Shown: piece after piece, positions 4,764 to 36,374 of the stretch
Layout of the letters: each line of letters starts with the position of its first letter
Numbering within the stretch: the first letter of the stretch is position 1
Assembly (NCBI GenBank): GCA_041305345.1
Contig: JBFYLP010000005.1
Span: 109,817-173,816, forward strand
From: Candidatus Micrarchaeota archaeon
GTDB taxonomy: Archaea; Micrarchaeota; Micrarchaeia; Norongarragalinales; SBBD01
Length of the DNA stretch: 64,000 nucleotides
Direction of reading: 5' to 3'
Program-made: the position numbers and the translations under genes
Notes under the pieces: model-generated
What the model was told of the DNA's origin: nothing
Database searches by the model: none
The model's input: only the letters and a program-made list of their open reading frames with translations

Positions 4764-5228
4764 TCACTTTTTGGTATTTTTTAATTTTTCAATTACGTCT
4801 AAAGCAATTCGATCATCTGGATATTTTTTTAAGACATCTTTTGCAATTTTTAATGCTTCACTTTCGGAAATCAACCTCTCTGGTAAATTATAGAAAAAAA
4901 GTAAAAACTGTTTGTGACCAATATTTTTTGGGGATAAATTAACTGCTCGCCTTGCATGAAATAAGGCTAAATTATACGCGTTTGGTAAATAATTAATTCC
5001 ATTGGAAAGTAGGACGGATGCAATCGAATGATATTCTGCATTTTCATTTTCATTTATTAAAAACCAAATGAAACCATATGGTGCAATACTCTTTCCATGA
5101 TAAGTTAGCTTGAAAAGAATTTCGTCTAATTTTTTAATTGTTAAATGTTTAACCAGTATTTTTGCTTTATAAAAATCTCCTGACAAGATATATTTTTCTA
5201 ATTTTGACTCCTCGGCATATATTTTCAT
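4764..5228 (-). CDS. Putative cognate immunity protein (helical/TPR-like) of the Ntox35-like tip
   Basis: ATGA overlap with the toxin stop; AT-rich; YHSIASVLL...AYNLALFHARRAVNLSP helical repeat. Confidence 0.7.
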   Translation of the reverse strand: MKIYAEESKLEKYILSGDFYKAKILVKHLTIKKLDEILFKLTYHGKSIAPYGFIWFLINENENAEYHSIASVLLSNGINYLPNAYNLALFHARRAVNLSPKNIGHKQFLLFFYNLPERLISESEALKIAKDVLKKYPDDRIALDVIEKLKNTKK

Positions 5229-6802: not shown

Positions 6803-7008
6803 ATTGGTTGCGAAAAAAAAGAAAAAAGGCATGTGCAGTTGTCAAAAGCGAGAAAAAAAGAACTGCGTCTTCGCGTCTGGGCGAAGGACTGACATCGACT
6901 TATGCGGAATGACCGCATTTTGAAAAAAATTATAATTTCAATGCATCGGATAACTTAGATAAAAACCCTTTTTTTGCCCATTTGGTTGGTTTACCAAAAG
7001 TATAATCT
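6803..7008 (-). repeat. Inter-cassette repeat copy B
   Basis: Direct repeat of 4510-4715; includes the last ~22 codons of the 6930-7562 gene. Confidence 0.9.
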
Positions 7009-7562
7009 GAAATCTTCCTAAACCAGATATTTTTCAAATTAGCCTTTTCCATAATTTGCTTGAGTTTAGATGTAACGATGAATCTTGTCTTAGAGTCAAC
7101 TGAAAAGAAATATTCGCCATTCCAATGATGTAAATCAAAATAAAATCCCTTCATGGCTGAAAGATATTTCTTCCCTTCCGAGTCTATCGAGTATTCAGGT
7201 TCACACTCGCCGATTAATAATGGTAAGGGATCAGATTTTGTTTCCATATAATAATATTTTGCCAGTATACTATTATAATTTACTTGGATTGGCCAGACAT
7301 GAAAATCACCAATATTGTTGTTCTTAAGTAAGGAGACAATTTTCTTAGAGTATACTTGTGTTGCCCACGAAGTAGCTAAAATATCCCCATACGTCGTTCC
7401 TGTTTGCGGAATAAGAGTAATTTTACCTCCTTTAACATATTCATCAAAATTTCTTTTTTGATTTAACTCTATATTTGAGATTTCTCCAGTTAACCAAAAA
7501 TATTTAGTTGCCCAACCATGCTCTAGAATATAAAAATCAGAATATCTCTGTTCAAGATTCAT
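6930..7562 (-). CDS. Orphan immunity protein, Imm11/DUF1629-like
   Basis: GDILAT...YSKKIVSLL and GFYFDLHHWNGEYFF...FIVTSKLKQIMEKANLKNIWF pattern; GGTGA SD; AT-rich; located in the toxin locus. Confidence 0.6.
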   Translation of the reverse strand: MNLEQRYSDFYILEHGWATKYFWLTGEISNIELNQKRNFDEYVKGGKITLIPQTGTTYGDILATSWATQVYSKKIVSLLKNNNIGDFHVWPIQVNYNSILAKYYYMETKSDPLPLLIGECEPEYSIDSEGKKYLSAMKGFYFDLHHWNGEYFFSVDSKTRFIVTSKLKQIMEKANLKNIWFRKISDYTFGKPTKWAKKGFLSKLSDALKL

Positions 7563-7645
7563 ATAGTATCACCCGCCATAATAACCATAGTAAATATCAA
7601 AATTATATTTTGAAGACATCAAATCTTTCCTCATGGTTTCACTTT

Positions 7646-8515
7646 TTAATATATTGATTCGGGAGCTCCCTCAATTCTTAATGGTTTCAGGTACTCGTTA
7701 AGTTTTTTCAAGTCATTTACATACCGAGTAGTTCCAAAATAGTTGTTAAGATTGATTTCGTAATTGGTTAGTTGTAGATAGGCTCCATTCGAGACTGATT
7801 TGACGATGGCTACGGGGGCTTCATTCTTGACTTTCTCAATCCCCCCAAGCCGGGCTAAATGATGTTTATTGAGGAAATTGCCCCAATAGGCTTTAAAGAT
7901 ATTTTTACAAACCCGATTTTGGTTTATTTGGTAAAATCTGACCTCGTCATTAAGTTTCTTTTCATAAGGGGTTTCTACAAGTCCTCGATCAATATCGAAA
8001 TAGGTGATTGGGGAGAGTGTCGCTTGCCTCATATAATCCGCTAAATTATTATGAAAAGTTATAAACCCGTATTCGAAGTTTTTTAAAAGCGATTCACTTA
8101 CTATTTCATTAATCTTAAAAGCTAAATTTGCGTCTATAAAATTAATACTTAAATTTTGTGGTTTTTCAAATTTTGGAGATAAGTCAAGATGAAAACTTAA
8201 TCCAATATTTTGGTTTTTTTCCTTAAATTGATTTTTTGATCGATTTTCAATAATAATAGAATAAAATCGGTCATCCTTTATTTTATTGATTATCTTGCCA
8301 ATATTCCTTGCGGATATTTTTTCAAATCGTTCGGCTGTTGCTGTTTCCTTTTTCATAAACGAATAAGTATCGAACGGATTCTCGGCATATTTATTAATTG
8401 TTTTTACTAGGGTCAATAATTCAAGAGGGGCTTTACGAACTTCTATATGAAAATATACTGTGAACCCATATTGTAATGACTTCCAATTTTCATGTTTTAA
8501 TTCTTTTGAATTCAT
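7646..8515 (-). CDS. Putative cognate immunity protein of the REase-fold toxin
   Basis: Immediately downstream of the Rhs stop; AGGTGA SD before ATG 8515; YWGNFL...LGGIEKV...GAYLQLT resembles immunity proteins of PD-(D/E)xK toxins; AT-rich. Confidence 0.65.
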   Translation of the reverse strand: MNSKELKHENWKSLQYGFTVYFHIEVRKAPLELLTLVKTINKYAENPFDTYSFMKKETATAERFEKISARNIGKIINKIKDDRFYSIIIENRSKNQFKEKNQNIGLSFHLDLSPKFEKPQNLSINFIDANLAFKINEIVSESLLKNFEYGFITFHNNLADYMRQATLSPITYFDIDRGLVETPYEKKLNDEVRFYQINQNRVCKNIFKAYWGNFLNKHHLARLGGIEKVKNEAPVAIVKSVSNGAYLQLTNYEINLNNYFGTTRYVNDLKKLNEYLKPLRIEGAPESIY

Positions 8516-8524
8516 ATATTTCAC

Positions 8525-11500
8525 CTACCTATATGGAACAATTTCAAAGCTCCACGCTCCGGATTTACCCCAATCAGCAGGTTTGCCATATTTACTCCAG
8601 TCGGCATTTTTTGCTGCATCAATATAGCCACTAACCTGATCCCTCGTGCTTTTTAAATTTACACGCCCCTCAGGTTTTAATTCATAAATTACCCTATTAT
8701 TTAGATCTATCGCATCTGGTCTAATGCGATATCCGGGAATAGCTTTATTGGTTATCATTCCTTTTTCTCCCATTATATTGTAGAATTTTTGATGTTCGGC
8801 CATACCTTTTACTATGGCTTCTCGAGTGTTTGGATTTGCTGCTCCTCTTAAAGTTGACTTGGAACCACTATTAATCTCGCCTTCGGTAACGCTCATTGCA
8901 TTGCCAGAACCGCTTAAGGCCTTCCCAACCCCATGCCCAACCCCTCCCAGGACAATATCAAATCCTATGCCACCCGGGTCAAGCAGATTCTGGGTTAAAT
9001 CCTGCCCGGTTAAAGCATTTTCTGCCACTTGGGCCGCTCTGCCGGAGGCTACGCTAGAGCCAACTGTTGCTAATAGAGATGCACATCCTGTTAATCCTGC
9101 AACGCCCCCTGCTACACCACCAACAACTGCCGCTCGGCCTACATCTGCTAAATTTACCTGTCCGGTTGCCATATATTGTGTGCCGGCAGAAATTGCAGCC
9201 CCCAAGGCGCCTCCAACCACGGCGCCAATCACGGCCGCAGGCAAAGTAATGAAATTCCCGCTTTCATCCGTGAATTTGTACGGATTGTTTTGAACGTACG
9301 AGTATCTGTTCAAGGATTGCGGTGCGTAGGGGAATTGGATCATTGGATCTGGTTGGTAGAATCTTCCAACGTTTGGGCTATAGTAACGGGCGCCATAATA
9401 CATCAAACCCGATTCAGAATCTTGCTCCTTCCCAGTGTAAAGGAAACGGGATTTCGCATCGTAAAGTGGTTCACCGAAGGGCTTGTAATTGGTGTCCTCC
9501 ACTACTGCTCCGCTTTCATTCGTAACCAATGTGGTTGATCCTAAATGGTCGGGATGGTAAAAGTATTTCTTGCCGTCGGGGTCTTTCCTCGCAATTAGTT
9601 GCGAATCGGTATAATAGTAAATCGTGTCGTAAGTGCCAGTCGCATTTATAACTCGGAGGAAATTCGGATTTATGTAGAAGACGGTTTCGTTCTTGATTCT
9701 GTCGGATTTCCTGATGCGGTTGCCGTCTGAATCGTAGAGGTATTCGGAAATGACGGTTCCAGTCGAATTTCCATCTCGGATTTTCGAGAGCTGATTAAAC
9801 GAATTATACTCGTAATAGGATTGCGAATCCTGAACCATATTTCCATTGGCATCGTAGAGGAATGATTGGGTGAGGTTGGAGGCGTTTCGGGAGGTGTTTT
9901 GCCCGATTGCGAGGGATTGCTGGCTAATAAAAGTGAGGTTTCCTGCTCTTGCGATGATCTTGTATTCCGACGAGTTCGAGTAATTGTAAGCGAGGTAAAC
10001 GAGGATGCTCTCTTGGGAAGAAAGGTTGATTGGGATTGTGGAGTTGATTTGGGAAACTCCCGTGAAGAAAGTGAAGTTGATGTTGCTGATGTTCTGGTTG
10101 CCATTGTTCTTGATGTGGAAGCCGAAAACCTTCAAAGTTGCGTTTGTGGAGAGGAGGCGGAGGTTCTCAACGGAAATGATGGGGCCGGTTTGACTGATGG
10201 AATTGGGGGCGTGGACTGGGGAGTTTTGGTAGGTGTAATTGCTTATTGTGTTTCCATTGTTTTCGGTGATTGTTAGGATATTTCCGATTGAGGAGTAGGA
10301 GTAGTTGAGAAGGTAGTCTTCCTTCTGGGGGGAATTATCGGTCCTGCGAGCGTAAATTAAACGGTTCAATTTGTCGTAGTCCATCGTTTGAAGTATCGAG
10401 TTGTAGGTGTCTTGAATCTGCATAATGTTGGAAACGTTGTCGTATTGGTAATTGAGGTCTTGGAGGTTGGAAGTGTAAATTCTGGTGAGCCTTGAAGTTG
10501 GGAAGTCGTAAGTGAAGGAGGTGTTGAGGTCGTTGCTGTAAGCTCGGAGAACGGGTTTGTTGAAGGCATTGTGCTGTGTGAGGTTGAGGATGCCTTGAAT
10601 TGTTGAGAGCTGGTTTTGCGAGGAGTAGTTGTAGGTGATGGTTTCGGAGTTGGGCAAGGTTTCGGTTCTGAGCCTATCGAGGGAATCGTAGGTGTAATTC
10701 GTGCTGGAAGTGTTGTGGCCTATAGTCTTGAGTTCGGAGGTTTTGCGGTAGCGGGAGTCGTAGGAGAAATTGAAAGAGAAATTAACTGCTGAAATGGATG
10801 AAAGGGTTCCGTTGAGCTGGCGGTCGTAGAGGAAGCTGATGGATTCGGTTGTGGAGTTTATACGGATGAGGCGGTTGAGATCGTCGTATTGGAGGGTTAT
10901 GGCTGTGCTGCGGTTGTCCTTCTGGGTGATGAGGTTGCCGGCTGCATCATAAGAGTAGTTCCAGATGCCTAAATCCGGGTCGATTAATGAGGTTTTCCTT
11001 CCGAGAGTGTCATAGGAGAATTTGAAGGTGTTTTGCTCGTTGTCGGTGATGTTGAGGAGCTGGGAGGCTGCGTCGTAGGAGTATTTGGTGACGTATGGAG
11101 TGACTGAGTTGAATTCGTGGATTTCGGTGATTTGACCGTAAGCGTCCTGAACCTGCTTGATTTGGTTGCCGTTCTCGTCCGTGGTTGTGGTGTTCCATCT
11201 GCTGTAATTGAACGATTTGGTGGTGTTGTCGGGGTTCCTGATGGAAAGGATGCGGCTTAGAGGGTCGTAGGTGATGTTGGAGAAGGGGATGGAGGCGTTG
11301 GGGGAGGAGTAGTTTTGGGAAGGAGTGGCAAAGTAGGGGTTGGATTTTCGCTGGACGCGGAATGAGGAGTCGTAGAAAGTGTCCTGGATGATGGATTGGT
11401 TGTTTTCGGCTTCCGAGCGGGTCTGGATTAGGTTGCCACGGCCGTCATAGAAGGAGATGGAATCATAAGTGTTATTTGTGGCATTTTCCTCGCGCTGAAC

Positions 11501-14500
11501 GACTTTTATTTTTTCAGGCGCGATGCCGTCGAATTCGTACTCATAGAGGGTTGAGGGGTAGATGGGGGAGTCGTAGGGCTTGATGATTTTGATGAGGCGG
11601 CTGAAATTGTCGTAGGAGTAGTTGGTGGTAAAGCCGTTGGAATCCGTTGTTGAGAGGAGGTTGCCGGTGCCTAAATCGTAGAGGGAGGTTGTGGTATGGT
11701 TGAGGGCGTTTATTGTTTTTTCGGGGAAGGTGAATGTTGAATCCGTTATGTTGTAAATGAATTTTGTGGTGCGGTTGAGGGGGTCGGTGGTGTTGATGAG
11801 GTTGCCGTAGGAATCGTAGGAGTAGTAAGTGAATGGGTTGGTGCCGCCTTCTAGCGTTTCTTCCTTTTTAGTAAGGAGGCCTTTGTGGGGCGCTGCACCA
11901 TATGAAAGGCCGTCGTAATAGTATTTGGTCCTGCGTAGAATCTGGCTGTCAAAACCTATCAGATGATGCGAGTATGGCTCATCCATTATCCACTCGCTCG
12001 TGTTGTAAGCGTACTGGTAGATTTCGTATTTCTCATCTCCGGAAACGCCGTTCTCGCCAAAATTCGAGATTGAGAGGGGGTTGCCGTAATCATCGTAGGA
12101 ATAGGTGGTGTTGGTGATTCTGGGGTTTGAGGAGGAGCCGTCAAAAGTGAAGGATGTTTCTCCTTGGAGATGGGTTGTGTAGTAGTTGTTTGAGAAATTG
12201 GTCGTGAAGTTGTATTCCTTTTTTAGGTAGGGGTTATTGGCTGCTTCATAGGTTTCGGTTCTGAATTCCATCCCCTTCCTGCCGGAATCCTGATGGAAAT
12301 AGTGGGTTGCCTTTGAACCGTCCGCATAAGTGATGTTTGCATTGGCAAAGCCCTTGAACTCACGATCTGGGTTGGACCACACGCCGCCGGAATAGGAATA
12401 ATTTGTGGTTGAGTTTATGTGTGCGGAGCCGTTCAGACTGTTGCTCAATGTGACCGAGGAGACGAGCCAGAGGTTGAAAGGGAGGTCTGAAAACGAGTCG
12501 TTGCCGGTGTTGTTGAGTTTTGTGGATTTGAGGTAGTCGACGCTGGTTTTACCGCCGAACTGGTTCACGGAATAATTGAGCAAATATGCTTTGCTTCCGT
12601 TGTTGATGTATGCTTTATTCGTGTTGCCGCCGCCGGCATTCGTGAAGGATTGCAGGATGTCTACTGATCCATCTCCATTCGCATCTGCAAGCCTGACTCC
12701 TAAATCACCCCTGCCGTCAATCGCGAACTCCATCGGGAAGGGAGCTAAACCATAGGAGGCTTCATAAACCCAGGCGGAGCCATTGTTGAGATATGCTTTA
12801 TTCGTGTTGCCGCCCCCATAATTCGTGAATGATTGGAGAACGTCTATAAGGCCATCGCCGTTGGCATCCTCAAGCCTCGTGCCTAGGTCGCCCCTTCCAT
12901 CGATGGCAAACTCTATTGGGAAGGGAGCTAAACCGTAGGATGCATCGTAGTTCCAAGCGGTGCCGTTGTTGAGAAAAACCTTATTCGTGTTGCCGCCGCC
13001 GGCATTCGTGAAGGATTGCAGGACATCGACGAGTCCGTCGCCGTTGGCATCTGCTAACCTGACGCCTAGGTCGCCCCTCCCATCAATTGCGAATTCGACC
13101 GGAAACGGGGCTAATCCCCAAGAGGATTGGTTGTTCCAGGCGGTGCCGTTGTTTATGTAAACGGTATTGGCGTTGCCGCCGCCGGCATTCGTGAAGGATT
13201 GCAGGACATCGACGAGTCCGTCGCCGTTGGCATCTGCTAACCTGACGCCTAGTTCGCCCCTCCCATCAATTGCGAATTCAACTGGGAAGGGGGAAGGACC
13301 ATACGAGGTTTGGTTGTTCCAGGCAGTGCCATTGTTTAGGTAAATCTGGTTTGTGTTGGCTCCCAGCGAATTGGTGTATGATTGCAGGAGGTCTATGGCC
13401 CCATCGCCGTTGGCATCCGCTAACCTTATCCCTAAATCGCCCCTCCCATCGATTGCGAATTCGACTGGGAATGGGGTTGGGCCATAGGAAGCATCGTAAA
13501 CCCAACCGGTTCCGTTGTTGAGGAAAACTTTGTTCGTGTTGCCGCCCAGGGCGTTTGTATAGGATTGGAGAACATCAATAAGGCCGTCACCGTTTGCATC
13601 CGCCAACCTTACTCCTAGATCGCTTCTGTTCTCAATTGCGAATTCTACTGGGAAAGGAGAAAGACCATAGTAGGTTTCGTAAGTCCAACCCGTTCCAGCA
13701 CCAATAAAGTAAAATTTGATTGGAGCCAGTGATTGGTTTTCATTATTCCCGAATTCGGTAATATTGGCAAGGAAGGAACGGGGGCTGAAGCTTACATTGG
13801 CGTAAGCAAGACCATATTTTCTGACGAGTCGGTCGTTTGCATTTATTTGTATCTCCTTCAGCCGCCTGGAAAGCCGCACGATGTTGGAGGCATCGAATAC
13901 CTTCCAGATGTCCGGGCGGTCGGAGGTTTCATAGATGAACTGCACATCGCGCTTTCTGTCGTTGTTGAATTGGATGGAAATGGGGTAGGTCGAGCCCAAA
14001 TCGTTCGGGAAGGGATTTTCGGAATAATTGTGGAAAATGGAGTTGTTGTGGGCATCCGTGATGGAATCAAGGTACCAGCGGGTGGCGAACAAACCGGTGT
14101 GTGAGACCATTTCGGAGCTGTTCTGCGAGCCGAAAACATAGGTTTTGCCGTCCTTGGAGCGCACGCGCCAGTAAGAGCCCATCTCATTGCTTGAGGCAGT
14201 AAGATTTTCAATTGAGAGGAAGGTTTCGATCTTTGTGTGGAAGCGGTTGTCCGCATTAGAAAAAACGAGCTCGAACTCGGAACCGCCAAGCACCAGCTTG
14301 AAGGAATCGTCCGAGAAATTGTATAAAGTGTGATTGAAAGCCCTCTCGATGTAACTTAGCGAGATTTCCCATCCGGCGCCCAATACCGTAGGCAATGAGT
14401 TGGTTTTCTGGTGGTTGTAGAAGAGGGTAACTGAAGGCTGCAAACCGTTTGTGCCCGGGGGAAGCTTGATTTGGTGATTATAAGTGAACGCGCCCGTGAA

Positions 14501-14647
14501 TAAGGAAGTCTTGAACGAATCATCCTGCTTGAAATCCGGTGGCGCAACGAATTCCGGCCGGGGCTGGCCTGGCGGATCGATTGCGGCAACCGGGAATGGA
14601 ATAAGGGAAAATGCAAGCAGGAAAAGCAGCAAGCAAGATTTGCCCAT
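8525..14647 (-). CDS. Large Rhs/YD-repeat polymorphic toxin: signal peptide, SpvB/TcB-like N-terminus, FG-GAP-like repeats, YD repeats, Rhs core, Tox-REase-9-like C-terminal nuclease
   Basis: MGKSCLLLFLLAFSLIPFPVAA signal; TGAFTY...LPPGTNGLQPSVTLFYN...LGAGW (SpvB-like); DANGDG repeats; YSYD..GN repeats; HPDHLGS...YTGKEQDSESGLMYYGARYY...NPYKFTDESG; tip IRPDAID...IYELKP...Q..GY. Confidence 0.92.
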   Translation of the reverse strand: MGKSCLLLFLLAFSLIPFPVAAIDPPGQPRPEFVAPPDFKQDDSFKTSLFTGAFTYNHQIKLPPGTNGLQPSVTLFYNHQKTNSLPTVLGAGWEISLSYIERAFNHTLYNFSDDSFKLVLGGSEFELVFSNADNRFHTKIETFLSIENLTASSNEMGSYWRVRSKDGKTYVFGSQNSSEMVSHTGLFATRWYLDSITDAHNNSIFHNYSENPFPNDLGSTYPISIQFNNDRKRDVQFIYETSDRPDIWKVFDASNIVRLSRRLKEIQINANDRLVRKYGLAYANVSFSPRSFLANITEFGNNENQSLAPIKFYFIGAGTGWTYETYYGLSPFPVEFAIENRSDLGVRLADANGDGLIDVLQSYTNALGGNTNKVFLNNGTGWVYDASYGPTPFPVEFAIDGRGDLGIRLADANGDGAIDLLQSYTNSLGANTNQIYLNNGTAWNNQTSYGPSPFPVEFAIDGRGELGVRLADANGDGLVDVLQSFTNAGGGNANTVYINNGTAWNNQSSWGLAPFPVEFAIDGRGDLGVRLADANGDGLVDVLQSFTNAGGGNTNKVFLNNGTAWNYDASYGLAPFPIEFAIDGRGDLGTRLEDANGDGLIDVLQSFTNYGGGNTNKAYLNNGSAWVYEASYGLAPFPMEFAIDGRGDLGVRLADANGDGSVDILQSFTNAGGGNTNKAYINNGSKAYLLNYSVNQFGGKTSVDYLKSTKLNNTGNDSFSDLPFNLWLVSSVTLSNSLNGSAHINSTTNYSYSGGVWSNPDREFKGFANANITYADGSKATHYFHQDSGRKGMEFRTETYEAANNPYLKKEYNFTTNFSNNYYTTHLQGETSFTFDGSSSNPRITNTTYSYDDYGNPLSISNFGENGVSGDEKYEIYQYAYNTSEWIMDEPYSHHLIGFDSQILRRTKYYYDGLSYGAAPHKGLLTKKEETLEGGTNPFTYYSYDSYGNLINTTDPLNRTTKFIYNITDSTFTFPEKTINALNHTTTSLYDLGTGNLLSTTDSNGFTTNYSYDNFSRLIKIIKPYDSPIYPSTLYEYEFDGIAPEKIKVVQREENATNNTYDSISFYDGRGNLIQTRSEAENNQSIIQDTFYDSSFRVQRKSNPYFATPSQNYSSPNASIPFSNITYDPLSRILSIRNPDNTTKSFNYSRWNTTTTDENGNQIKQVQDAYGQITEIHEFNSVTPYVTKYSYDAASQLLNITDNEQNTFKFSYDTLGRKTSLIDPDLGIWNYSYDAAGNLITQKDNRSTAITLQYDDLNRLIRINSTTESISFLYDRQLNGTLSSISAVNFSFNFSYDSRYRKTSELKTIGHNTSSTNYTYDSLDRLRTETLPNSETITYNYSSQNQLSTIQGILNLTQHNAFNKPVLRAYSNDLNTSFTYDFPTSRLTRIYTSNLQDLNYQYDNVSNIMQIQDTYNSILQTMDYDKLNRLIYARRTDNSPQKEDYLLNYSYSSIGNILTITENNGNTISNYTYQNSPVHAPNSISQTGPIISVENLRLLSTNATLKVFGFHIKNNGNQNISNINFTFFTGVSQINSTIPINLSSQESILVYLAYNYSNSSEYKIIARAGNLTFISQQSLAIGQNTSRNASNLTQSFLYDANGNMVQDSQSYYEYNSFNQLSKIRDGNSTGTVISEYLYDSDGNRIRKSDRIKNETVFYINPNFLRVINATGTYDTIYYYTDSQLIARKDPDGKKYFYHPDHLGSTTLVTNESGAVVEDTNYKPFGEPLYDAKSRFLYTGKEQDSESGLMYYGARYYSPNVGRFYQPDPMIQFPYAPQSLNRYSYVQNNPYKFTDESGNFITLPAAVIGAVVGGALGAAISAGTQYMATGQVNLADVGRAAVVGGVAGGVAGLTGCASLLATVGSSVASGRAAQVAENALTGQDLTQNLLDPGGIGFDIVLGGVGHGVGKALSGSGNAMSVTEGEINSGSKSTLRGAANPNTREAIVKGMAEHQKFYNIMGEKGMITNKAIPGYRIRPDAIDLNNRVIYELKPEGRVNLKSTRDQVSGYIDAAKNADWSKYGKPADWGKSGAWSFEIVPYR
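12575..13669 (-). repeat. Six tandem 183-bp (61-aa) FG-GAP/VCBS-like coding repeats
   Basis: Unit YGLAPFPVEFAIDGRGDLGVRLADANGDGLVDVLQSFTNAGGGNTNKVFLNNGTAWNYDAS repeated six times with high identity. Confidence 0.92.
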
Positions 14648-14718
14648 CAACCCAAGCGCCCCGAAAGGTAAGATTTCAAGTAATATTTAAAGCAGTTGGA
14701 ACGGACCCTCTTTGCCGA

Positions 14719-16287: not shown

Positions 16288-17118
16288 ATGAGAAAACTAT
16301 ATACAAGGAAATTACACATACCCAAGGAAGTTCGGGAGTTCATTGCCGGCAGCGATGTCACTACGGCTATGCAGCTAAGCAAGCGTTTTGGGTTTTCAGA
16401 AATTACCGCAATGAATTACCTGAGCCGGGCGAAGAAATTGGGGCTGGGAACAAGGGTGGCCCCAAAGATGCTAATGAAGGCAAGGCACGACTATCCCGAA
16501 TTTTCAAAAGAAAAAAAACGCGTTTATGATGCGATAAGGAAAGACATGCCATTTGTGCCCATTACCATCTGGTCTACCTTTGACCTTAACCGGTATGCGC
16601 ATAACATTATAATGAAGGGAGTGATTTTTGTTGAAACTGAAGGATTTGCAGTTGAAACCGTAAAAGATAAACTTCTATCGAATGGCGTCAAGGCAATAAG
16701 TTTCAACAGCAAGGCTGACCTCCGCAATATTTTTGATCTTATGGAAACACCCGTATTGGTGATGGGAAGAAAGGACAAGGCGGGCACGAATGCAGACAAG
16801 AAAGATAAGAATTTGCATCTGCCTTCATTTGAAAGGATATTTGTAGATGTTTATTTCCTGAATACCCGAAAATACCTCTCGCTGCCGCTTTCCGAGCTTG
16901 GGAATGTACTTGAGAATATATCCGCATTCGGGTACTCACTCAACTATTCCCTGCTGAATTGGGTTGCAATGCGAAGAAATGTCCTTGCGGAAATCGAAAC
17001 CGCGTTATACTTGTTCAAGAAGAAAAGCAGCCGCTTTGCGTCAATTCCTGAAAAATTTGCAAGGAAAAGGAAGTTAAGCAAGAAGCAGTTAAATTCCGTA
17101 ATGCAAATGGTTGGTTAA
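16288..17118 (+). CDS. AbiEi-like type IV antitoxin / transcriptional regulator (N-terminal HTH)
   Basis: N-terminal wHTH-like segment, PSFERIFVDVY motif; directly upstream of an AbiEii-like gene. Confidence 0.65.
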   Translation: MRKLYTRKLHIPKEVREFIAGSDVTTAMQLSKRFGFSEITAMNYLSRAKKLGLGTRVAPKMLMKARHDYPEFSKEKKRVYDAIRKDMPFVPITIWSTFDLNRYAHNIIMKGVIFVETEGFAVETVKDKLLSNGVKAISFNSKADLRNIFDLMETPVLVMGRKDKAGTNADKKDKNLHLPSFERIFVDVYFLNTRKYLSLPLSELGNVLENISAFGYSLNYSLLNWVAMRRNVLAEIETALYLFKKKSSRFASIPEKFARKRKLSKKQLNSVMQMVG

Positions 17119-17119
17119 G

Positions 17120-18163
17120 ATGGCGGAAGAATTCAAAAGCAAGGAAATATTGGAAAAGGCAACGGCAGCCTTCACGTTTCTAAAACTCCTGACAGAGTAC
17201 GGCCTTAAGCCTTTATTCAAAGGTGGAACATGCGCCCAGCTATTCCTGCCTTCAAAACAGCAAAGGCTTAGCGGCGATATTGATATTGCATATGGTAATG
17301 AGATCGAAGTTGAAACCGCCCTAAGTAAAACCGAGAAGGATTCCTACAAGATAAAGCGCTGGCCGGATAATCCCGATCCAAACCTCCCTTTCATCAGATA
17401 TACAATAACCGCCCCGAACAAAGCCGAATTTTACCTCGATCTTATCCTTAAAGAACCCAAATACAAAACCCAGCTAACGAAGCTTGAAACAACGTATTTT
17501 ATCTCTGCAATCAAAGTCAGGACGCCCACCCTTCACTCAATTATCGGGGATAAGCTTACTACTTTGGGACCCTCGACAGTAGGGAGGGCGTTAACCGAGA
17601 AAAAAGGAGCCATCGAATATGCGAAACAGGTATATGACCTTGCGCATCTTTTGCCCCTTGCTTCAGATCAGGAGGAAATTTACGATGCTTACGGGATGGT
17701 GGTTGAGGATCAAAAGATCTTCCGCCCAACCAAAGTAATTACCCTTGAAAATTCGATTGAGGATTTGCTTTACGTTGCAAGGATGCTAACGATGACCGGG
17801 CAGGATGTTGGGAAGTTGAAAGACAAAGAAATAGGTGGGCAAATCGCATATATCAAGAATGGCATCGATGGCTTGGGTAACTTTTTGAATTCCAGCATCA
17901 AATTTGGACCCAACGAGGCGAGGGTTGCAGGAGGCCAAATTGCGTTAATTGGCATGGCGCTTAAGAAATTATCGACGGGAGAGAATCCGGATTATTCGGG
18001 GCTTAGGAAAAAAGCGCTGAGTAAGCCCGATGATGAAAGTTTTCTTCAAGAAGCCTCAAAACGGCTCATAGAATTTGAACCACTAATCGAATGGAAGCGC
18101 CTGCAGGTTTTAACGCCTAGGTCCATTCCCTACTGGTATTTTGCTTATTTTGGAGAAAGCTGA
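17120..18163 (+). CDS. AbiEii-like nucleotidyltransferase toxin (type IV TA)
   Basis: LFKGGTCAQL...RLSGDIDI motif, IIGDKLT, KQVYDL. Confidence 0.85.
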   Translation: MAEEFKSKEILEKATAAFTFLKLLTEYGLKPLFKGGTCAQLFLPSKQQRLSGDIDIAYGNEIEVETALSKTEKDSYKIKRWPDNPDPNLPFIRYTITAPNKAEFYLDLILKEPKYKTQLTKLETTYFISAIKVRTPTLHSIIGDKLTTLGPSTVGRALTEKKGAIEYAKQVYDLAHLLPLASDQEEIYDAYGMVVEDQKIFRPTKVITLENSIEDLLYVARMLTMTGQDVGKLKDKEIGGQIAYIKNGIDGLGNFLNSSIKFGPNEARVAGGQIALIGMALKKLSTGENPDYSGLRKKALSKPDDESFLQEASKRLIEFEPLIEWKRLQVLTPRSIPYWYFAYFGES

Positions 18164-19933: not shown

Positions 19934-20905
19934 GTGGTAAGATTAATTAAGCCCAAAATCCATATTATTACCATGAGGATAAGGAAAAAGGGCGTCAACG
20001 GCAACGGATACTACTACTTAGAGGAAACGATAAGACTGGAAAAGCCAAAAGTCTACTCCATATTCCTTGGAGCCAAACTACCCGAAAAGATCCAAATCGG
20101 GGGCTTTAAGCGAAAGTTGGTTGACAAGATTTACAATGACCTATTAGGGGAAAAGGAACGGATTTACCTAACAAAGGAGCAGCTGATCGAAGCTGAAAAG
20201 AGAAGGAGGAGGTATGCAGCCAAAGTAAAACTTCTCGGAAAAGCAAGGCAGGATGAAAAGGACGAAATGGATACAGTCAACTTCGTTTATACCACCCTTA
20301 CAACGGAAGGAGTCCCAATAACTAAGGAAGATGCGAATCTGGCCTATAGACTAACTCAGAAAAACATGAAAAACCTAAGGGATGAAAACCTTCGGGTCGC
20401 ATTGGACATGATCAAGGGAATCAGGTTCGTCAAGGAGAGCAAAACAGGTATTTTTAATGAATTTATCCTAAAATTGCACAATATCATCATGTCCCAATAT
20501 TCTGATAAGGGACCCGGCAGCATAAGAGATATTCCTGCTTATATCTATTTGAAAAGCTATGAAAAAGTTGAGGAAATCGGGTTTAGGCCAACTCCGCCGG
20601 AAATGATAAGGAAGAGACTTGAAGAACTGATTAAATGGTACAATGATAATGTCGGCAAAATGAATGCAATTGAATTTGCTAGTCTTTTTCACCTGCGCTT
20701 TTACACGATCCATCCATTCAAGGATGGGAATAAGAGGATGTCAAGGCTTTTGCTGAACAAAGCTTTCTTGGATTCGGGTTATCCGATGCTCAATATATCC
20801 AAGCAGTCGCAGGCATATTTTGATGCCCTGATCGGCTCAGTAGAAGGCAAGGATGAAAAGCCGTTTGTTGAGTTCGTTTATGGAAGGTTTATTTCGGATA
20901 TCTAA
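19934..20905 (+). CDS. Fic/Doc family protein
   Basis: HPFKDGNKRMSRLL motif; start may be ATG 19973. Confidence 0.9.
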   Translation: MVRLIKPKIHIITMRIRKKGVNGNGYYYLEETIRLEKPKVYSIFLGAKLPEKIQIGGFKRKLVDKIYNDLLGEKERIYLTKEQLIEAEKRRRRYAAKVKLLGKARQDEKDEMDTVNFVYTTLTTEGVPITKEDANLAYRLTQKNMKNLRDENLRVALDMIKGIRFVKESKTGIFNEFILKLHNIIMSQYSDKGPGSIRDIPAYIYLKSYEKVEEIGFRPTPPEMIRKRLEELIKWYNDNVGKMNAIEFASLFHLRFYTIHPFKDGNKRMSRLLLNKAFLDSGYPMLNISKQSQAYFDALIGSVEGKDEKPFVEFVYGRFISDI

Positions 20906-22162: not shown

Positions 22163-22292
22163 GTAAGGCTAACCCTTACTTGGTTAAAAAGACTTTTGGA
22201 TGCAAATGGCCGCACTTGCCGCTCACCTCCAATCGTTAAAAAGGCGACACGGCATAAATAAACCGGGCCTGCAGAAATGAAAGTTCTGCAAA

Positions 22293-22645
22293 GGGCTTGT
22301 AGGTGCGCCTGCTTGCAGCCGCATCAAAGAAGCTCAGCCTGGTCTAGAGCGCCAACGAACCTTTTTTTCCCGAAAGAAAAAAGCCCTCCATAAAAAAAGA
22401 AGGGGCTTTTTTGCGGTTTGGAAAATCAAAGGTTCGGCGTTCGTCTTATACGACGACGGAACACGTTTTCGTTCGACTAGGAGAACTGGATGTCCCGGGT
22501 TCAAATGACTTGCTTTGCCTTATAAAAAGGCAAAGTGGTGCACCGCAATGGTTTTTTTGCAAATCAAAGCCGTTCCTTGGCGCGCGGGGCAATCGCACCT
22601 TTCATTAAAAGGAAGGGGCAAGGCGTGAAAATCCCGGCAGGCCCA
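22293..22645 (+). tRNA. tRNA-Ile(UAU) with four introns (about 9/10, 29/30, 37/38, 59/60)
   Basis: Exons 22293-22301, 22332-22354, 22443-22450, 22484-22505 and 22632-22645 join to 76 nt: GGGCTTG TA GCTC AGCCTGGTCTA GAGC G CCAGT CT TAT AA ACTGG ATGTC CCGGG TTCAAAT CCCGG CAGGCCC A. BHB-like motifs at the junctions; the first junction is the weakest. Confidence 0.85.
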
Positions 22646-22730
22646 TCTGCTTCTTTTTTTGAAAGGATGCCCCACATCGAACAGCTAATCCTATTAAAAA
22701 ATCTTTTTACTCATTAATAGGGTGGTAAAA

Positions 22731-28476: not shown

Positions 28477-31400
28477 CTAGTTGCCATTTAAATTACGCGC
28501 CTGCTTGCAGGCAAGAAAGTAATGGTAAAGCATATGCATTACCTGATCGGTCGCATCTATCGGGGGCACATATTCTGCCATAGGTGTTGGGCTGGGGCTC
28601 GTTTTTGGCGAATCGTAGGAGGGGCACCAATTCCGCTCATTCGATACGGCAACTTTAACGGCACTTTCGGGCAGGGGCTTTATCGCAACGAAGGTGTCAT
28701 CCGCAGCAGCGGGTTTTTCCACTAGCTTGCCTTCATCCAACCAGCACCGGGATGAAAAAATCGTCCCGTCGGGCTTTTCAAGCGCAAGGCATATGTTCTT
28801 GCCCTCGAAGAGCTTTCTTTGGATGAATAATTCGGTTTCCTTGTCGCCAATGTCTTCCGGCTCGGATTTCGTGCCGGTGCAATCCTTGTTGTCGCATACC
28901 CTGGCTTTTGTCCCGGGGGGCAATTTTGACAGGTCCAGCTGGGCGTTCACGCAAACCTTATCCTTCGTTGCCGTAAATTCATCCTCTTCAGAGCCTTTAT
29001 CCACCGGCAGGCATTTATCAGTATTCTCAGTGCTGACCGGGGTTAGGCTGATGCGCTGTATTGCCTCTTCTGCCAGGGCCGTGCCTTCCATCGACGCCCC
29101 AAAAATTTCCGTTGATTGGTTCTTGGGCTGGTTCTTCACGCCGTATTCGTCCGGCTTGAATGTGAACAGCCAGTAGGCGTCATCCTGGTATTTTGAAATG
29201 TCCCACATCCCCACGGGTTTTCCATCGTGGGTCAGATCAAATTGCGCGCCCTCCCTCAGAAGGTATTTCAGTGCTGCCTTGAAAGCCTCCTCGCTGATGT
29301 CCGAAAAGTCGGCGGAGGAAACGGTGTCCTTTATTTTGCAGTTTTCGGGAGTGGCCATCACGAATGGGATTTGGACATCGCACGCTGAGAATGTTTTCAC
29401 TGACACGAATGTGAGCTCCTTGTTTGCAGGATCAAGCATTACGAATGAAAACGGCTCGAGCATGTTGAAATCATTTACCTTGTCGAGCTTTATCCCCATA
29501 TCAGCACAGCTGTTTTCAATGCCGGTGTAATCGAGAAGCAGGCCGCGGTCATCCAGCCAATCAGGCGGCTGCTTCAGGCCGATGTTGCAGCTCTTGATCT
29601 TGATGTCCCTATTTCCACCAGTTCCCTTAAGGGCACCGAAGGATTCGTCATATATTTTCAGCTTGTCCTGGGTTAGGTCCGTGCTGAACGCATACTTGTT
29701 CATCGTGTAAAGCGTCGGGAGACCGGGTGCATCCTGCTTCACAATCACGGGGTTCTCCAGGTAATGGTATATTGGCGCATTGTTGGAGTTGTCAAGGGAA
29801 ACTGCAATGAAGCGGTCCTTTGGCTGGGGTTTGAGCTTCTCGGATACTTCATTCTTGTTCTTGGAAAGCGCCTTTTGGAGTCCCGCATCAACTGATTCGG
29901 AGGAAAGCGCCTGGTCAAGGGTGAAGAAACCTCCGGAGCTGCTTGAGCCCTGCTCTTCCGTGAGGGCGCTAAAGCTCTTTAGCACGTAGCCCGCGGTCTT
30001 CGCGGAAGCATCCGTCTTGAAGAGGACCGAAACCTCGAGCCCCCTCGTGTCCACTATTGGCTTTGCGTATTGCACGCGCGGCTGGAAGGGGAAGCCCTTT
30101 TGCATCATCCGGTTCATCATCGCCTGCTTGATCGCGCCGAAATTGTTCGTTGCTGCAAGCGCCTCGAAAGTGTTGAGGAATTCCGAGTCGCAAACTGAGG
30201 CATCGAGCATATCCTTCTCAACTGCCCAAAGCTCAGAGCCCGTGACCGTCTGGTCGCAGTAAGCGCCCTCGACGCAGTTATAATCATAGCTGCTCGAAAC
30301 CGACTGCTTGCAAAAGCCGTCGGTCAAAGCCTCGACACCCTTGCAAAGCTCGTATTGCGCCTTGTCTGCAATGTAATCCTGCAAAGTGAGCGCAGCTGCT
30401 TCGGCGATCCTTTCAAGCGCATAGTCGCCAAAGCCCGCAAAATCGAGTTTCTGTATGCGGATGTCCTCGTGGGCCTCCTCGATGTCCTTTGCAACCTCCT
30501 CTGCAGCTTCCTGAAGATCCTTTTCCGAGCAGAAATTATTGCCGCTGCATTGAAGCCCGCCATCGCCTTCGGAGCCCGGATTGCCAATCACGTCGTATGC
30601 GCCATCCGAATCCAGGGTTGTTGGCGAGGGAAGCGCAAGTGGGAAAGGGTCCTCGTCGCGGATCCTCCTTAAATCAAACGTCCGTTCCGTTCCCAGTTTT
30701 AAATTCTGTTCAAAATAATAGAGCTTGTAGAAATCGTCATTTCCCCTGCAGAGTTTGTTTGGGTTTGCTTGATTGCACAGGTCGCCGTTATCAGGAACAT
30801 CAACTAGCTTGCTGCCGGGGATGTTGTTCACCAGATAGAAAGGCTCGACGGCGTCCGTGCCTTCATCGTTCCTTGCGGTTATTTGGGAGGAAACGGGCAC
30901 CGACTGCAGCACGTATTTCCCGATCCCCTCGTTATGGATGATGAATTCAAATTCGATTGAGAACTCCTGCCCGGTTGGCACGAACTTCATAACTATCCGC
31001 TGTTTCTTCGTTTCCTTACCGTCATCGAAGAGGAGCCTGCCTTCCGTTGAGCCCGCTTCCCCGGAGAACTCGTATTTCATCTTCCTCGGATCGTTCGTGA
31101 AAATGAAGGTGGTATAGCGGGGAGCAATGCCGATGATGCTGTTTAGGTCCTGCAATGCGCCGATGATCTTCCCGTCTGGGCCGTTCTTGTCCGCATAGTA
31201 GCCTGCAAGGTATTTGAGTTCTTCGCCGGTGTCGTACAATTGGATGTTCGAGGCGGAGCCGTATGCAAGCGCATAATCATTGATGATCGAGAATGCGGCG
31301 CCGTTGATTGGCAGGAAAGGCGAGAGGTGGACCTTGCAGCTAAAGCCCGCGCCGTTCCCAACGACTTCGCAAATCCCCGGGTCATCCGCAGTTTGGAGGG

Positions 31401-34400
31401 AGGAATACGGCCCCATCTGCAGCTGGTTTTGCTGGTAATACTGCATATTCTGCGAAGCTGCCGGGTTCCAGCTGTTCGTGAAGCCGTTGAAATTCTGGCC
31501 GTAAACCGCAGGCTGCGCAAGCCCGGGGCTTTTAACTGCCTGGATGCCGTTGGTATAAACGTAGAATTTGTAAAAGCTGCTGTATGCTACCTGCTTTGAT
31601 TTTCCCGCCTGGGGCTCGAGCTGGCCGATTAGTCCCTTCGTGAGATGGCCAACGAACCTTTGCGCAAAGTAGTTGTTGTTCTTGTACTTGCAAATCGCAT
31701 CCACATTCCCAACGTACACGATGCCCTTCATCGAATTTTCGCCCATATCCCGGTAATTGTAAATGCCGCTCCTGGTGAATTGGAAGGAATACGTCTTCCC
31801 GGGCTGGATCGAACCCGACTTGAAGGGTACGCCGGAGGGCGATTTGTAGCCCGAAATCGATTGCAGCTGGTGCGCCTTTGAATCCTGGTTGACCCACGTG
31901 ACCTTTGCATTCTCGGGGATCGAAACTGCGGGCGGTTCGAAACCATAGCTGGTGATCACAACGATGGTTCCATTCGTATCCGTTGTCTGCGAAGCGCCGG
32001 GCTTGACAGCTGGCCCTGTGATCACGACTCGGACGCTAAGTTGGGGCTTGTTCGAAAAAGTGATGTAAAGCCTTCCGGTTTGAACAACCGCCCTTTTATT
32101 GGTATCGAGCGTGGCATCCGTGCTTGTTGCAGCTTCCGTTTCGGGAGTGCACGCATCAACTGTGCAGCCAAGAGTTTCCTCAAGCTGCTCGCACGCCTCC
32201 TTCTGTGCAAGGGTGCCAACTTCCGGGCACCTTTGCCTGACGGTGCCGTCTGATTTGTAGTATGTCTTGCCGGTGCTAGCTGTTTTGCTAACGACAACGT
32301 AGCCGCCATCGGTGCAGGAATAAATGGTTTCGACATTCGCATCCCCGCACCTTGAGGAGGGGTCTGCTGCAAACGAAAGCGTTCTCAATTCCGGCCCGCT
32401 GAAGGATAAGGAGCTTGCCTCCTTCCCGCCAAAATTCAAATTGTCAAGATCAGCATAAATGACTCCCTTGTAATACGGATGGCCCGAATAATCCGCCAAA
32501 ACCACAAGGACGCTTGGGTCCGTGGAGCAGTCGAGATTCACGTAATTTTCCATCTTTGCATTCTCATCGGTTTCGGGGCTCCTTATGGTGCAGCCTGTGA
32601 TCGTGCTCCCCCGGGTTATTTCCTGCAGCGAATAATAACCGTTGAACTGCAAAGCCTCATCGAGCTCGAGCGTAAGCGTATCCGTTGGAAGGGCGCCGTA
32701 GGGGGTTGCAGTTGGCGTTAGTTCAATCTTCTTGCAGATGTTCTCAACGCAGGCCATCCCCGCATCGCACTGCGAATCAAGCGTGCAGAATTTTGGCAGG
32801 GCGCAATTGATCTTCACCGGGATCTTGATGTTTGCGTGGCTGCCTCCTGCGGCCTCGCCATCGATGCTAAGGTCGCACGCGCTTCCCTGCCTTGTTGGCG
32901 TAAGCACGAGGCTTTTCTTTTTCTTCGCGCCAAGGGTGAATGCAGCGCCGGTTCCGGATGCTATGGTGTTGACGCCATCGCCTATCAGGGTTATGCAGTT
33001 GGACTGTGCGAGTACGTTGATCTCCGCATTCAGCAGGTTCTCGACATCAAGGGTGCTGCCGTCGCACGAAAGCAGTATCGATTGCGAGCTTGCTGAAAGG
33101 AACTCGGTTAGCGAGACCGCAACCTCCTTCTTTGCATTGCGGAACCCTTCGCGTTTTGCAATGACGGTGAACCTTCCGGTGTTAAGCGGATGCAGCCTTC
33201 GGAACTCGTACACCCCATCAGCGCCCTCCTTTTCCGATCCGTCACCGACGATGGAATCGGGGACCATTCCATCGAATGCGGCGCTTTCGTCCTCCTCTAT
33301 TGTGATTGTGGCATCCGTGATCGCACTTTCATCAAGTGCGTTCTGCAGGAGCACGCGCAGGCTGGAATCATCATTCGCCTGCATCTGCAGGGGCGCAACC
33401 TGCATAAGGAAATCGTTTGTGCCAGTAACCTGCACTGACGATTTCAATGAGATGTATTGGGAATCCGCATCTCCAAAAATAAGCTCCATTCTCGAGTATG
33501 CAGTTGAAAGTAACCCAAGGAGCTCGATCTCGCCCGAAATGGTGCTGCCTTCCTCGAGGCTTTCGAGCTGCCACGTCCATTCCTTCCTCCCTTCCGCATT
33601 CCCGCTGCTGCTTCCGAGCCTGAATGCGCCAAAGGAGAGTTCGCTATCGTCGGTGAGCTTGAGGAACGGTGAGTTTTCATAGCGCTTCAAGGCGCGGAGG
33701 GAGAAATATGCCTTGAAGGGAACGCCTACGTCAACTGCAAAGCCCTTGGAAACCCTTGGCAGGTTGGCTTCCCCGAACTGCAGCGAAAGGCACGCTTTGT
33801 CGTTGCATATGAACCGGTCCTCCGAGATGCGGAAGGAAACGGCATCCGATTCGGCGTAGCACGAATCCCACTCATCGGTCCGCTCCGCAGTGCCTAGGGC
33901 GGCATCCTCCGGAACGCGGGTGAAAATACTCCCGCTTGACGCATAACCGCGATAGTTTATGGAGATCTCGTCGTTTTGCTTTGCCGTAGGCTTGATGAAA
34001 ATCTTAAGCACAACCGCCTTCGTATTTTGCTGCTTTGGAAATTCGTATTGCACCCATTTTGCCATTTTGGCGCTCCCATCGACATCAGAGGACTTGTCGG
34101 ATTTGCAGCTTTGGGAAGGATTGTACGAGAAGCCCTTCGTGACAGCGGAGTTCGCAGGCTTGTCATAATAGGATATTGCCGCAATGTCCTCCTCGGCTGT
34201 CTTTGAATCGCTTCCGCCAACCCTTATGAACATCCCGCCCATTTCGCTTCCAGCTGGTATGTTGAGGACGAATTTCGCATAATAGTACGAGCCCTTGGAA
34301 AGGGATGGAAAATCGCGGGCGTATGTGCCGCCCTCGGTCGATGCAAGGCCCTCAAAGTTGACCGACAGTTCGTTCTTCAATGCCGCGGGTATGAGCTTCA

Positions 34401-36252: not shown

Positions 36253-36374
36253 CAGCTTCACCGTTTAAAACGTATCCTCGAAGGAATAAAAACATACCTT
36301 TTGCATCAATGCACGTTGTGGCCGGTTGCCAAATACCCTTTTTAATTCCATTTCCCAAACCCTAATTGATCCCG

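Follow-up and report, generated by a model that had tools for sequence, protein, structure and literature searches.

Architecture of the tRNA-Ile(UAU) gene

The window analyzed here, a stretch of 64,000 nucleotides (nt) on contig JBFYLP010000005.1 of a Candidatus Micrarchaeota archaeon, contains at positions 22293-22645 of its plus strand an interrupted gene whose exons together make up a tRNA-Ile(UAU). Judged from its sequence and from that of its relatives, the locus is very probably a functional tRNA-Ile(UAU) gene of the single-copy type with four bulge-helix-bulge (BHB) introns, in a member of the Micrarchaeota (DPANN) close to Ca. Norongarragalinales. Removal of introns of 30, 88, 33, and 126 nt at sites 9/10, 29/30, 37/38, and 59/60 (standard tRNA numbering) leaves a 76-mer that ARAGORN identifies as tRNA-Ile(tat) with a perfect cloverleaf. 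An earlier reading of the window from its letters alone (the sequence-only reading) had derived the same 76-nt cloverleaf, with a UAU anticodon, from the 353-nt locus, and the ARAGORN call on the spliced sequence bears this out. The stems have 7, 4, 5, and 5 base pairs (bp) with a single wobble, U5·G68. The UAU anticodon stands in a 7-nt loop, and A37, A38, and the discriminator A73 go along with an Ile-type tRNA body; CCA is absent from the encoded 3′ end.

Exon 1 (22293-22301; 9 nt, GGGCTTGTA) supplies positions 1-9 and is followed by intron 1 (22302-22331; 30 nt, site 9/10) with a relaxed BHB motif; in L003, L005 to L008, and L145, six of the orthologous loci introduced below, exons 1 and 2 are contiguous. 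Exon 2 (22332-22354) covers positions 10-29, i.e., the D arm and the 5′ part of the anticodon stem, and has 23 nt because the D loop holds three extra residues. Intron 2 (22355-22442; 88 nt, site 29/30) has a strict hBHBh′ motif and is a member of intron family A. It is followed by exon 3 (22443-22450), which comprises only 8 nt (GTCTTATA, positions 30-37) and contains the anticodon TAT. Intron 3 (22451-22483; 33 nt) sits at the canonical 37/38 site with a 4-bp central helix and leads to exon 4 (22484-22505; 22 nt, positions 38-59). Intron 4 (22506-22631; 126 nt, site 59/60) is assigned to family B, and exon 5 (22632-22645; 14 nt, positions 60-73) ends with A73. Like the gene, all of these segments read on the plus strand, as does a T7 run at 22654-22660, which is a candidate archaeal oligo-T terminator. 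T-rich trailers were seen in 8 of the 13 loci inspected, including L001, L002, L004, L135, and L137.

In its unspliced form, the DNA was not recognized as a tRNA by ARAGORN, with or without the intron option, or by Rfam, be it at the gathering threshold, at E≤5 (whole window), or at E≤10 (451-nt locus). No other Rfam family was above threshold at the locus. Matches within intron 2 (Plastid-psbA-2, mir-278, and others) are far below threshold and were discarded as A/U-hairpin noise. A weak match of the C/D-box family snoR44_J54 at the boundary of intron 4 and exon 5 (16.3 bits versus a gathering threshold of 48, E=2.8) is sub-threshold noise as well, and inspection of the introns by eye revealed no RUGAUGA/CUGA box pairs of C/D-box small RNAs (sRNAs).

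Orthologous loci with one to five introns

A gapped pattern of exon 1, a gap, and exon 2 led to one contig, from a Ca. Norongarragalinales metagenome-assembled genome (MAG), whose locus is named L001. L001 is syntenic with the window, and since DNA identity in the flanking genes is only ~74%, it represents a different genome. With exon 4 as the probe, 6 metagenome contigs and 8 genome loci were found, each of the latter carrying a Micrarchaeota label (Ca. Norongarragalinales and Micrarchaeia among them), and a synteny search with the gene of a CDP-alcohol phosphatidyltransferase added four more loci. After removal of duplicates, 14 distinct loci remained, the window included; the 13 orthologous loci come from 11 MAGs labelled Micrarchaeota/Micrarchaeia and 2 unlabelled metagenome contigs. 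The phosphatidyltransferase gene lies directly upstream of the tRNA in every locus.

The orthologues encode the same or nearly the same tRNA and carry one to five introns at subsets of the sites 9/10, 29/30, 37/38, 53/54, and 59/60. L008 and L145 have the 37/38 intron only, L003 and L007 have 29/30 and 37/38, and L005, L006, and L014 have 37/38 and 59/60. Introns at 9/10, 29/30, and 37/38 are found in L002; the window, L001, L004, and L137 have an additional one at 59/60, and L135 has an additional one at 53/54. All five sites are filled in L136 (JACRGC010000001.1, 1987-2377, minus strand), with exons of 9/23/8/16/6/14 nt and introns of 94/92/35/85/23 nt; despite its 6-nt exon, TTCAAA, this gene splices to a 76-mer identical to that of the window. 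Site 9/10 is filled in L001, L002, L004, L135, L136, and L137 by introns of 30 to 97 nt, and the 37/38 intron is the sole one kept in every orthologue.

Each exon join of the window gene is uninterrupted DNA in some relative, and the intron lengths and the four positions given in the sequence-only reading turned out to be exact in standard numbering. The same holds for its 8-nt exon: GTCTTATA is invariant in all 14 distinct loci, including those in which exon 2 is contiguous with it. Of the 13 orthologues, 12 were spliced in silico, and ARAGORN called tRNA-Ile(tat) for every one of them; the thirteenth, L014, was located through its exons only. Furthermore, the Rfam tRNA model matches the one-intron and two-intron orthologues full-length, with 55 and 41 bits, respectively, at a gathering threshold of 29.

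Conservation of the mature tRNA and the need to read AUA

Over all 76 exon nucleotides, the window, L001, and L136 do not differ, whereas the introns differ in length and sequence and the flanking coding DNA is ~26% diverged. Among nine distinct mature sequences, the cloverleaf is 100% paired, with compensatory changes at 6-67 (U-A to C-G), 10-25 (G-C to A-U), and 50-64 (C-G to U-A or G-C); the covariation score was reached by none of 500 shuffles. In L137, itself a four-intron gene, the change at 50-64 joins exons 4 and 5 across intron 4.

AUA accounts for 214 of the 985 Ile codons (21.7%) in 21 open reading frames (ORFs) of the window, and an AUA decoder is therefore required. No genome assembly had more than a single locus for the exon-4 probe. 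Searches of the 64-kb window with ARAGORN, Rfam, and a custom scan revealed no other tRNA, including tRNA-Ile(CAU); the custom scan looked for a T arm and acceptor pairing within 700 nt, so that tRNAs with a disrupted T loop would escape it. ARMAN-2, ARMAN-4, and ARMAN-5 were reported to carry tRNA-Ile(UAU) and to lack both tRNA-Ile(CAU) and TiaS (PMC3239211), and UAU in the absence of TiaS has also been described for Korarchaeum and Nanoarchaeum. By analogy, TiaS would be missing from the source genome of the window as well. The sequence-only reading had described UAU anticodons as known in only a few archaeal lineages; in the lineage in question, given the three ARMAN genomes, such an anticodon is no surprise.

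Splice motifs

A BHB motif has two bulges of ~3 nt on opposite strands, set apart by a 4-bp helix at the boundaries of exon and intron, and is cut inside the bulges. BHB frames were scored with a central 4-bp helix between exon positions x-5 to x-2 and intron positions n-5 to n-2, and with bulges made of x-1, x, i1 and of n-1, n, x+1. The 29/30 junction is a strict hBHBh′ motif with an outer helix of 3 bp, a central helix of 4 bp, an inner helix of 9 bp, and two 3-nt bulges, and so deserves the label of a textbook BHB that the sequence-only reading had attached to it. That reading had also seen full 4-bp central helices at 37/38 and 59/60, and both score 4 bp. At 37/38, the helix consists of C32-G, U33·G, U34-A, and A35-U, in which the anticodon region meets the 3′ end of the intron. 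At 59/60, a perfect 4-bp central helix has the T stem (5 bp) as its outer helix, with a 3x1 internal loop at the 5′ site. Site 9/10 has a relaxed motif, with outer pairs G1-C13, G2·U12, and G3-C11, three central bp plus G7·A, and the bulges UAG and AAG. Eukaryotic tRNA-Ile(UAU) is known for intron-dependent modification, of which the 37/38 intron, present in every orthologue and with its central helix on U34 and A35, may be reminiscent.

A 4-bp central helix together with an outer helix of at least 2 bp is present in 79% of 24 introns from 9 loci, far more than chance would give: when the frames are shifted at one end or the other by as much as 8 nt, only 0.5% of them qualify. In 14 further introns (L135 to L137 and L145), every central helix has 3 to 4 bp. 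All 38 scored introns are in BHB frame with a central helix of this size. The exon side of the motifs is invariant across the loci, and the changes on the intron side all keep the pairing, being purine swaps opposite U or pyrimidine swaps opposite G. The window sequence alone would also permit a shift of 9/10 to 8/9 and of 59/60 to 56/57 to 58/59; these shifted junctions are ruled out by the BHB geometry and by L004, in which the junction at 59/60 is unambiguous.

A putative leader that accompanies the 9/10 intron

Upstream of the gene lies a TATA-like box, TTAAAAA (22236-22242, plus strand), ~22 nt upstream of the motif GGGCCTG. It is a candidate promoter that would give a leader of ~28 nt, and a TTAWAAA box with the same spacing is found in 7/7 genomes with intron 1; its role as a promoter is presumed. 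A second A/T-rich box, ATAAATAAA (22254-22262, plus strand), is an alternative candidate with a leader of ~8 nt and is poorly conserved among the relatives. GGGCCTG itself (22265-22271, plus strand) is exactly complementary to CAGGCCC, the acceptor strand at the 3′ end of the tRNA. In the form GGGYCTK, it occurs in all seven genomes with a 9/10 intron and in none of the seven distinct loci that lack one. It runs into a hairpin, TGCAGAA/TTCTGCA (22270-22290, plus strand), whose loop and 3′ arm hold the block ATGAAAGTTC (22277-22286). This block is exactly conserved in the window, L001, L002, L004, L135, L136, and L137, and is not enriched elsewhere in the window. The TTAWAAA box and the ATGAAAGTTC hairpin are, like GGGYCTK, absent from the seven distinct loci without the 9/10 intron.

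In minimum free energy (MFE) folds that include the leader, the GGGCCTG-type motif pairs with the 3′ acceptor strand in 4/4 loci tested; the partners of nucleotides 1-6 are the 3′ end of intron 1 and the D-stem strand. In the presence of the leader, a slipped continuous helix is favored over the BHB register by 7 to 11 kcal/mol. The leader GGGCCUG may hold the 3′ acceptor strand and would thereby free nucleotides 1-7 for the 9/10 splice motif. Such mimicry of the acceptor is an attractive idea, and a function for it is speculative. The co-occurrence of the leader with the 9/10 intron may reflect shared ancestry alone, as the seven genomes are close relatives.

Other explanations of these upstream elements did not hold. 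If GGGCCTG were the true 5′ exon and 7/8 the site of an additional intron, the next exon would be just 2 nt long (UA), and relatives have GGGCCTT, which gives a mismatch at 7-66; the apparent 4-bp helix of such an intron stems from the palindromic GGCC. A small ORF that starts with the ATG in ATGAAAGTTC is not conserved in length (40 amino acids [aa] in the window versus 16 aa in L001). A genome-wide scan with the pattern GGGCCTKN{4,24}ATGAAAGTTC returned only chance matches in unrelated bacteria, the pattern being too unspecific.

Two families of introns within one gene

The long introns make up two paralogous families, and in this clade both have apparently been copied from one site of the gene to another. 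Family A introns have ~90 nt and a core of GCCCTCCGG-AAAAGAAAG-AGGGC, flanked by ACCTTTTYCTTTC and its complement. They occupy site 9/10 in L002, L135, L136, and L137, site 29/30 in the window, L135, and L136, and site 53/54 in L135 and L136. These nine copies align end to end with a mean column identity of 69%; window intron 2, for example, is identical to intron 1 of L137 at 67 of 86 positions. Family B is defined by the module TTTCTTGGCG..GGAGCCATCGC.CCTTYYTT..AAGAARGGGGCAAGGC and is found at 59/60 in the window, L001, L004, and L137 and at 29/30 in L001 and L137. Intron 2 of L137 matches intron 4 of the same gene at 49 of 52 positions (94% over the 52-nt module) and window intron 4 at 50 of 61. 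For each of these pairwise comparisons, none of 1,000 dinucleotide shuffles reached the score.

Duplication of introns within the gene explains the build-up from one to five introns. As read from the intron sequences, the pattern is the signature of duplicative intron transposition as in Thermoproteales, here within a single gene. No further copies of either family were found in the 64-kb window, and a search of a viral collection for the module cores gave no hits. It is imaginable, although rather unlikely, that families A and B propagate themselves into BHB-compatible sites of the same gene, which brought it to five introns in L136, and that the gene has co-evolved the transcribed GGGCCUG leader as a built-in RNA chaperone for the ordered splicing of multiple introns.

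Proposed processing of the precursor

In our model, which builds on the gene architecture, BHB geometry, orthology, exon conservation, covariation, and intron paralogy observed here, the whole locus would be transcribed as one precursor. The archaeal splicing endonuclease would excise the four BHB introns, ligation of the five exons (9, 23, 8, 22, and 14 nt) would give the 76-nt tRNA, and, after addition of CCA, the mature tRNA would decode AUA. By analogy with ARMAN-2, this enzyme would presumably be of the ε2 type, which has broad specificity and is known in the phylum. Endonucleases able to cut relaxed, noncanonical BHB motifs are those of the ε2, the (αβ)2, or a loop-bearing type. This type of EndA is known from ARMAN-1 and ARMAN-2 and from Mancarchaeum (PMC3239211, PMC5829648), and the ε2 enzyme cuts the single-intron pre-tRNA-Ile(UAU) of ARMAN-2 and a relaxed 59/60 substrate in vitro (PMC3239211). 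Within the 64 kb of the window, a Pfam scan of 30 ORFs yielded no EndA domain, and neither RNA ligase nor TiaS was found.

The 29/30 and 37/38 motifs share four nucleotides, G30-U33, and are the sole overlapping pair. Within the 29/30 motif, G30 belongs to the 3′ bulge and U31-U33 belong to the outer helix; within the 37/38 motif, the same four nucleotides build the outer and the central helix. Because these nucleotides are shared and because the anticodon stem becomes contiguous only after removal of the 29/30 intron, 37/38 is probably spliced after 29/30; the remaining introns could be presented independently. The sequence-only reading had expected ordered splicing on account of overlapping BHBs, which applies to this pair and falls away for the others. 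By the same logic, 53/54 should precede 59/60 in L136, since C48-G51 and U54 are part of its 53/54 motif. An attempt to deduce the order from the folding of the precursor and of partly spliced intermediates was uninformative and was dropped in favor of the argument from nucleotide overlap.

Several observations weigh against this model and against the functional reading of the locus. With its 3-bp central helix, the 9/10 motif is relaxed, and it has both the acceptor stem and the D stem as competitors. To force BHB conformers costs 1.5 kcal/mol for intron 4, 5 to 6 kcal/mol for intron 2, 6 to 11 kcal/mol for intron 3, and ~11 kcal/mol for intron 1, and in nearest-neighbor folding such conformers are almost never found in the ensemble, even for a lone canonical intron. 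Finally, runs of T7, T6, and T7 in introns 2 and 4 (22362-22368, 22407-22412, and 22552-22558) could be archaeal terminators, in which case read-through would be needed.

The intronic T runs are also the starting point of the strongest alternative, a split tRNA, which we consider improbable. Here, transcription would end at the internal oligo-T within introns 2 and 4, A/T boxes in the introns would serve as promoters, and the pieces would be joined in trans through their BHB motifs. TATA-like strings do exist in intron hairpin loops (e.g., TTATAAAAA in intron 4), and split and tri-split tRNAs are known in archaea with a broad-specificity EndA (PMC3239211). However, in 14 genomes all pieces lie collinear and close together on one strand, and the T runs are not conserved, with only T4 to T5 in L001 and L004. 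In the window, they are paired with A runs in hairpins, and the short introns of relatives (23 to 48 nt) at the same sites leave no room for a promoter.

Still less probable is a decaying pseudogene that has been invaded by repeats, with AUA read by another tRNA elsewhere in the genome. Such a view could draw on the invisibility of the unspliced gene to ARAGORN and Rfam and on the tRNA-Ile(TAT) of Atabeyarchaeia, which tRNAscan-SE marked as "possible pseudo" (PMC11291895). It is at odds with zero exon substitutions relative to L001 and L136 despite ~26% divergence of the flanks, with the compensatory changes in the stems and the BHB frames kept in every intron, and with the single exon-4 probe locus per assembly in a genome in which AUA makes up 22% of the Ile codons. 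Chance tRNA-like fragments or an assembly artifact, for which only the small size of exons 1 and 3 speaks, can be dismissed almost entirely, since the same architecture recurs in independent assemblies from different studies, every join is confirmed by intron-less junctions, and the slid-frame control argues against coincidence. We thus retain the functional gene with four BHB introns.

Other genes of the window

Just upstream of the tRNA neighborhood, a DUF6577 protein and an AbiEii-type nucleotidyltransferase form a pair that resembles type IV toxin-antitoxin systems, accompanied by a Fic/DOC-family protein (16288-18163 and 19934-20905). Farther upstream, an Rhs/Tc-toxin-like locus occupies 5225-14650 on the minus strand. 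It encodes a 2,041-aa protein with SpvB, TcdB_toxin_midN, FG-GAP, and RHS repeats, whose C-terminal domain is Tox-REase-9. Next come a second RHS protein, here with Ntox35 at the C terminus, and an immunity gene of the Imm11-like kind. The GC content of the toxin region is 0.38 to 0.42 at 4 to 10 kb, and the GC skew reaches 0.46 at 10 to 12 kb; low GC content and strong skew suggest acquired polymorphic-toxin cassettes in a DPANN archaeon.

On the other side of the tRNA gene, three giant ORFs are found on the minus strand (28477-36261, 40219-46734, and 47723-53950; 2,594, 2,171, and 2,075 aa). They have N-terminal CarboxypepD_reg/Ig-like domains and no other Pfam match, and they probably encode cell-surface proteins typical of DPANN episymbionts. 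A weak match of the archaeal C/D-box sRNA sR44 at 217-286 on the minus strand (18.3 bits versus a gathering threshold of 45, E=4.6) is most likely due to chance.

Comparison with known intron-containing tRNA genes

The closest known counterpart is the pre-tRNA-Ile(UAU) of ARMAN-2 (Ca. Micrarchaeum acidiphilum), which is from the same phylum, has the same anticodon, and also carries a canonical BHB intron at 37/38 (Fujishima et al. 2011, PMC3239211). In ARMAN-2, this is the single intron, with 25 nt and a strict hBHBh′ motif, whereas the window gene has three more, at 9/10, 29/30, and 59/60, of up to 126 nt. A second ARMAN-2 gene, for tRNA-Pro(GGG), has introns at 53/54 and 59/60 that leave a 6-nt micro-exon, as in L136, although it is a different tRNA with two introns (PMC3239211, Fig. 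1C). Indeed, 29/30, 53/54, and 59/60 are known insertion sites.

Thermoproteales have noncanonical BHB introns at sites such as 29/30 and 59/60, as in the window, and similar introns at different sites have been read as the result of duplicative transposition (Sugahara 2007/2008 and Fujishima 2010, as cited in PMC3239211; review, PMC4390854). There, the reported maximum is three introns per gene and transposition was described between different tRNA genes, whereas in our case several sites of one gene are involved. An orthologous series of one, two, three, four, and five introns at fixed sites amounts to a natural experiment on the gain of BHB introns, and such a series within one gene is rarer and cleaner than the cross-gene comparisons in Thermoproteales.

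Outside the archaea, the tRNA-Ile(UAU) gene of the red alga C. merolae, for the same isoacceptor, has three introns: one lies in the D region, one at 37/38, and one in the T loop (PMC3728597). Reverse transcription-PCR showed that its 37/38 intron is removed last, which is the order proposed above for the window gene; for this eukaryotic gene, expression has been verified by experiment (PMC3728597). The genes described here would be demanding natural substrates for an ε2 endonuclease, with exons of 6 and 8 nt, motifs that are mutually exclusive, and a motif that is set against the acceptor stem.

Their discovery also bears on annotation. A tRNA gene that is missed by ARAGORN and Rfam/Infernal helps to explain the "missing" tRNAs of DPANN archaea, a problem raised in PMC5829648, and a MAG annotated without this gene would seem unable to read AUA, i.e., 22% of its Ile codons.

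Until 2015, reviews put the upper limit for an archaeal tRNA at three introns (PMC3239211), and the sequence-only reading had considered four to be exceptional. This has to be corrected: four-intron tRNA genes are already listed for Freyarchaeia and Atabeyarchaeia (Valentin-Alvarado et al. 2024, PMC11291895, Supplementary Data 4), and the relative L136 has five. Examples are Arg-TCT, Ile2-CAT, and Leu-GAG of Freyarchaeia and Trp-CCA of Atabeyarchaeia, several of which were partly missed by tRNAscan-SE (PMC11291895). Like the window gene, they have four predicted BHB introns; however, the hosts are Asgard and not DPANN archaea, the introns are mostly short, and the genes are given as table entries without comparative or BHB analysis (PMC11291895). 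Furthermore, Freyarchaeia use Ile2(CAU), whereas the anticodon of the window gene is UAU. In the literature that we searched, we found no report of a five-intron tRNA gene or of a four-intron one in DPANN archaea, and the five introns of L136 are the highest number that we could find for any tRNA gene.

In sum, the window gene is an extreme, not an unprecedented, case of a known phenomenon. Compared to the systems above, the five-intron relative, the series from one to five introns, the paralogy of introns within one gene, and the leader motif are new, and their interest is real but incremental.

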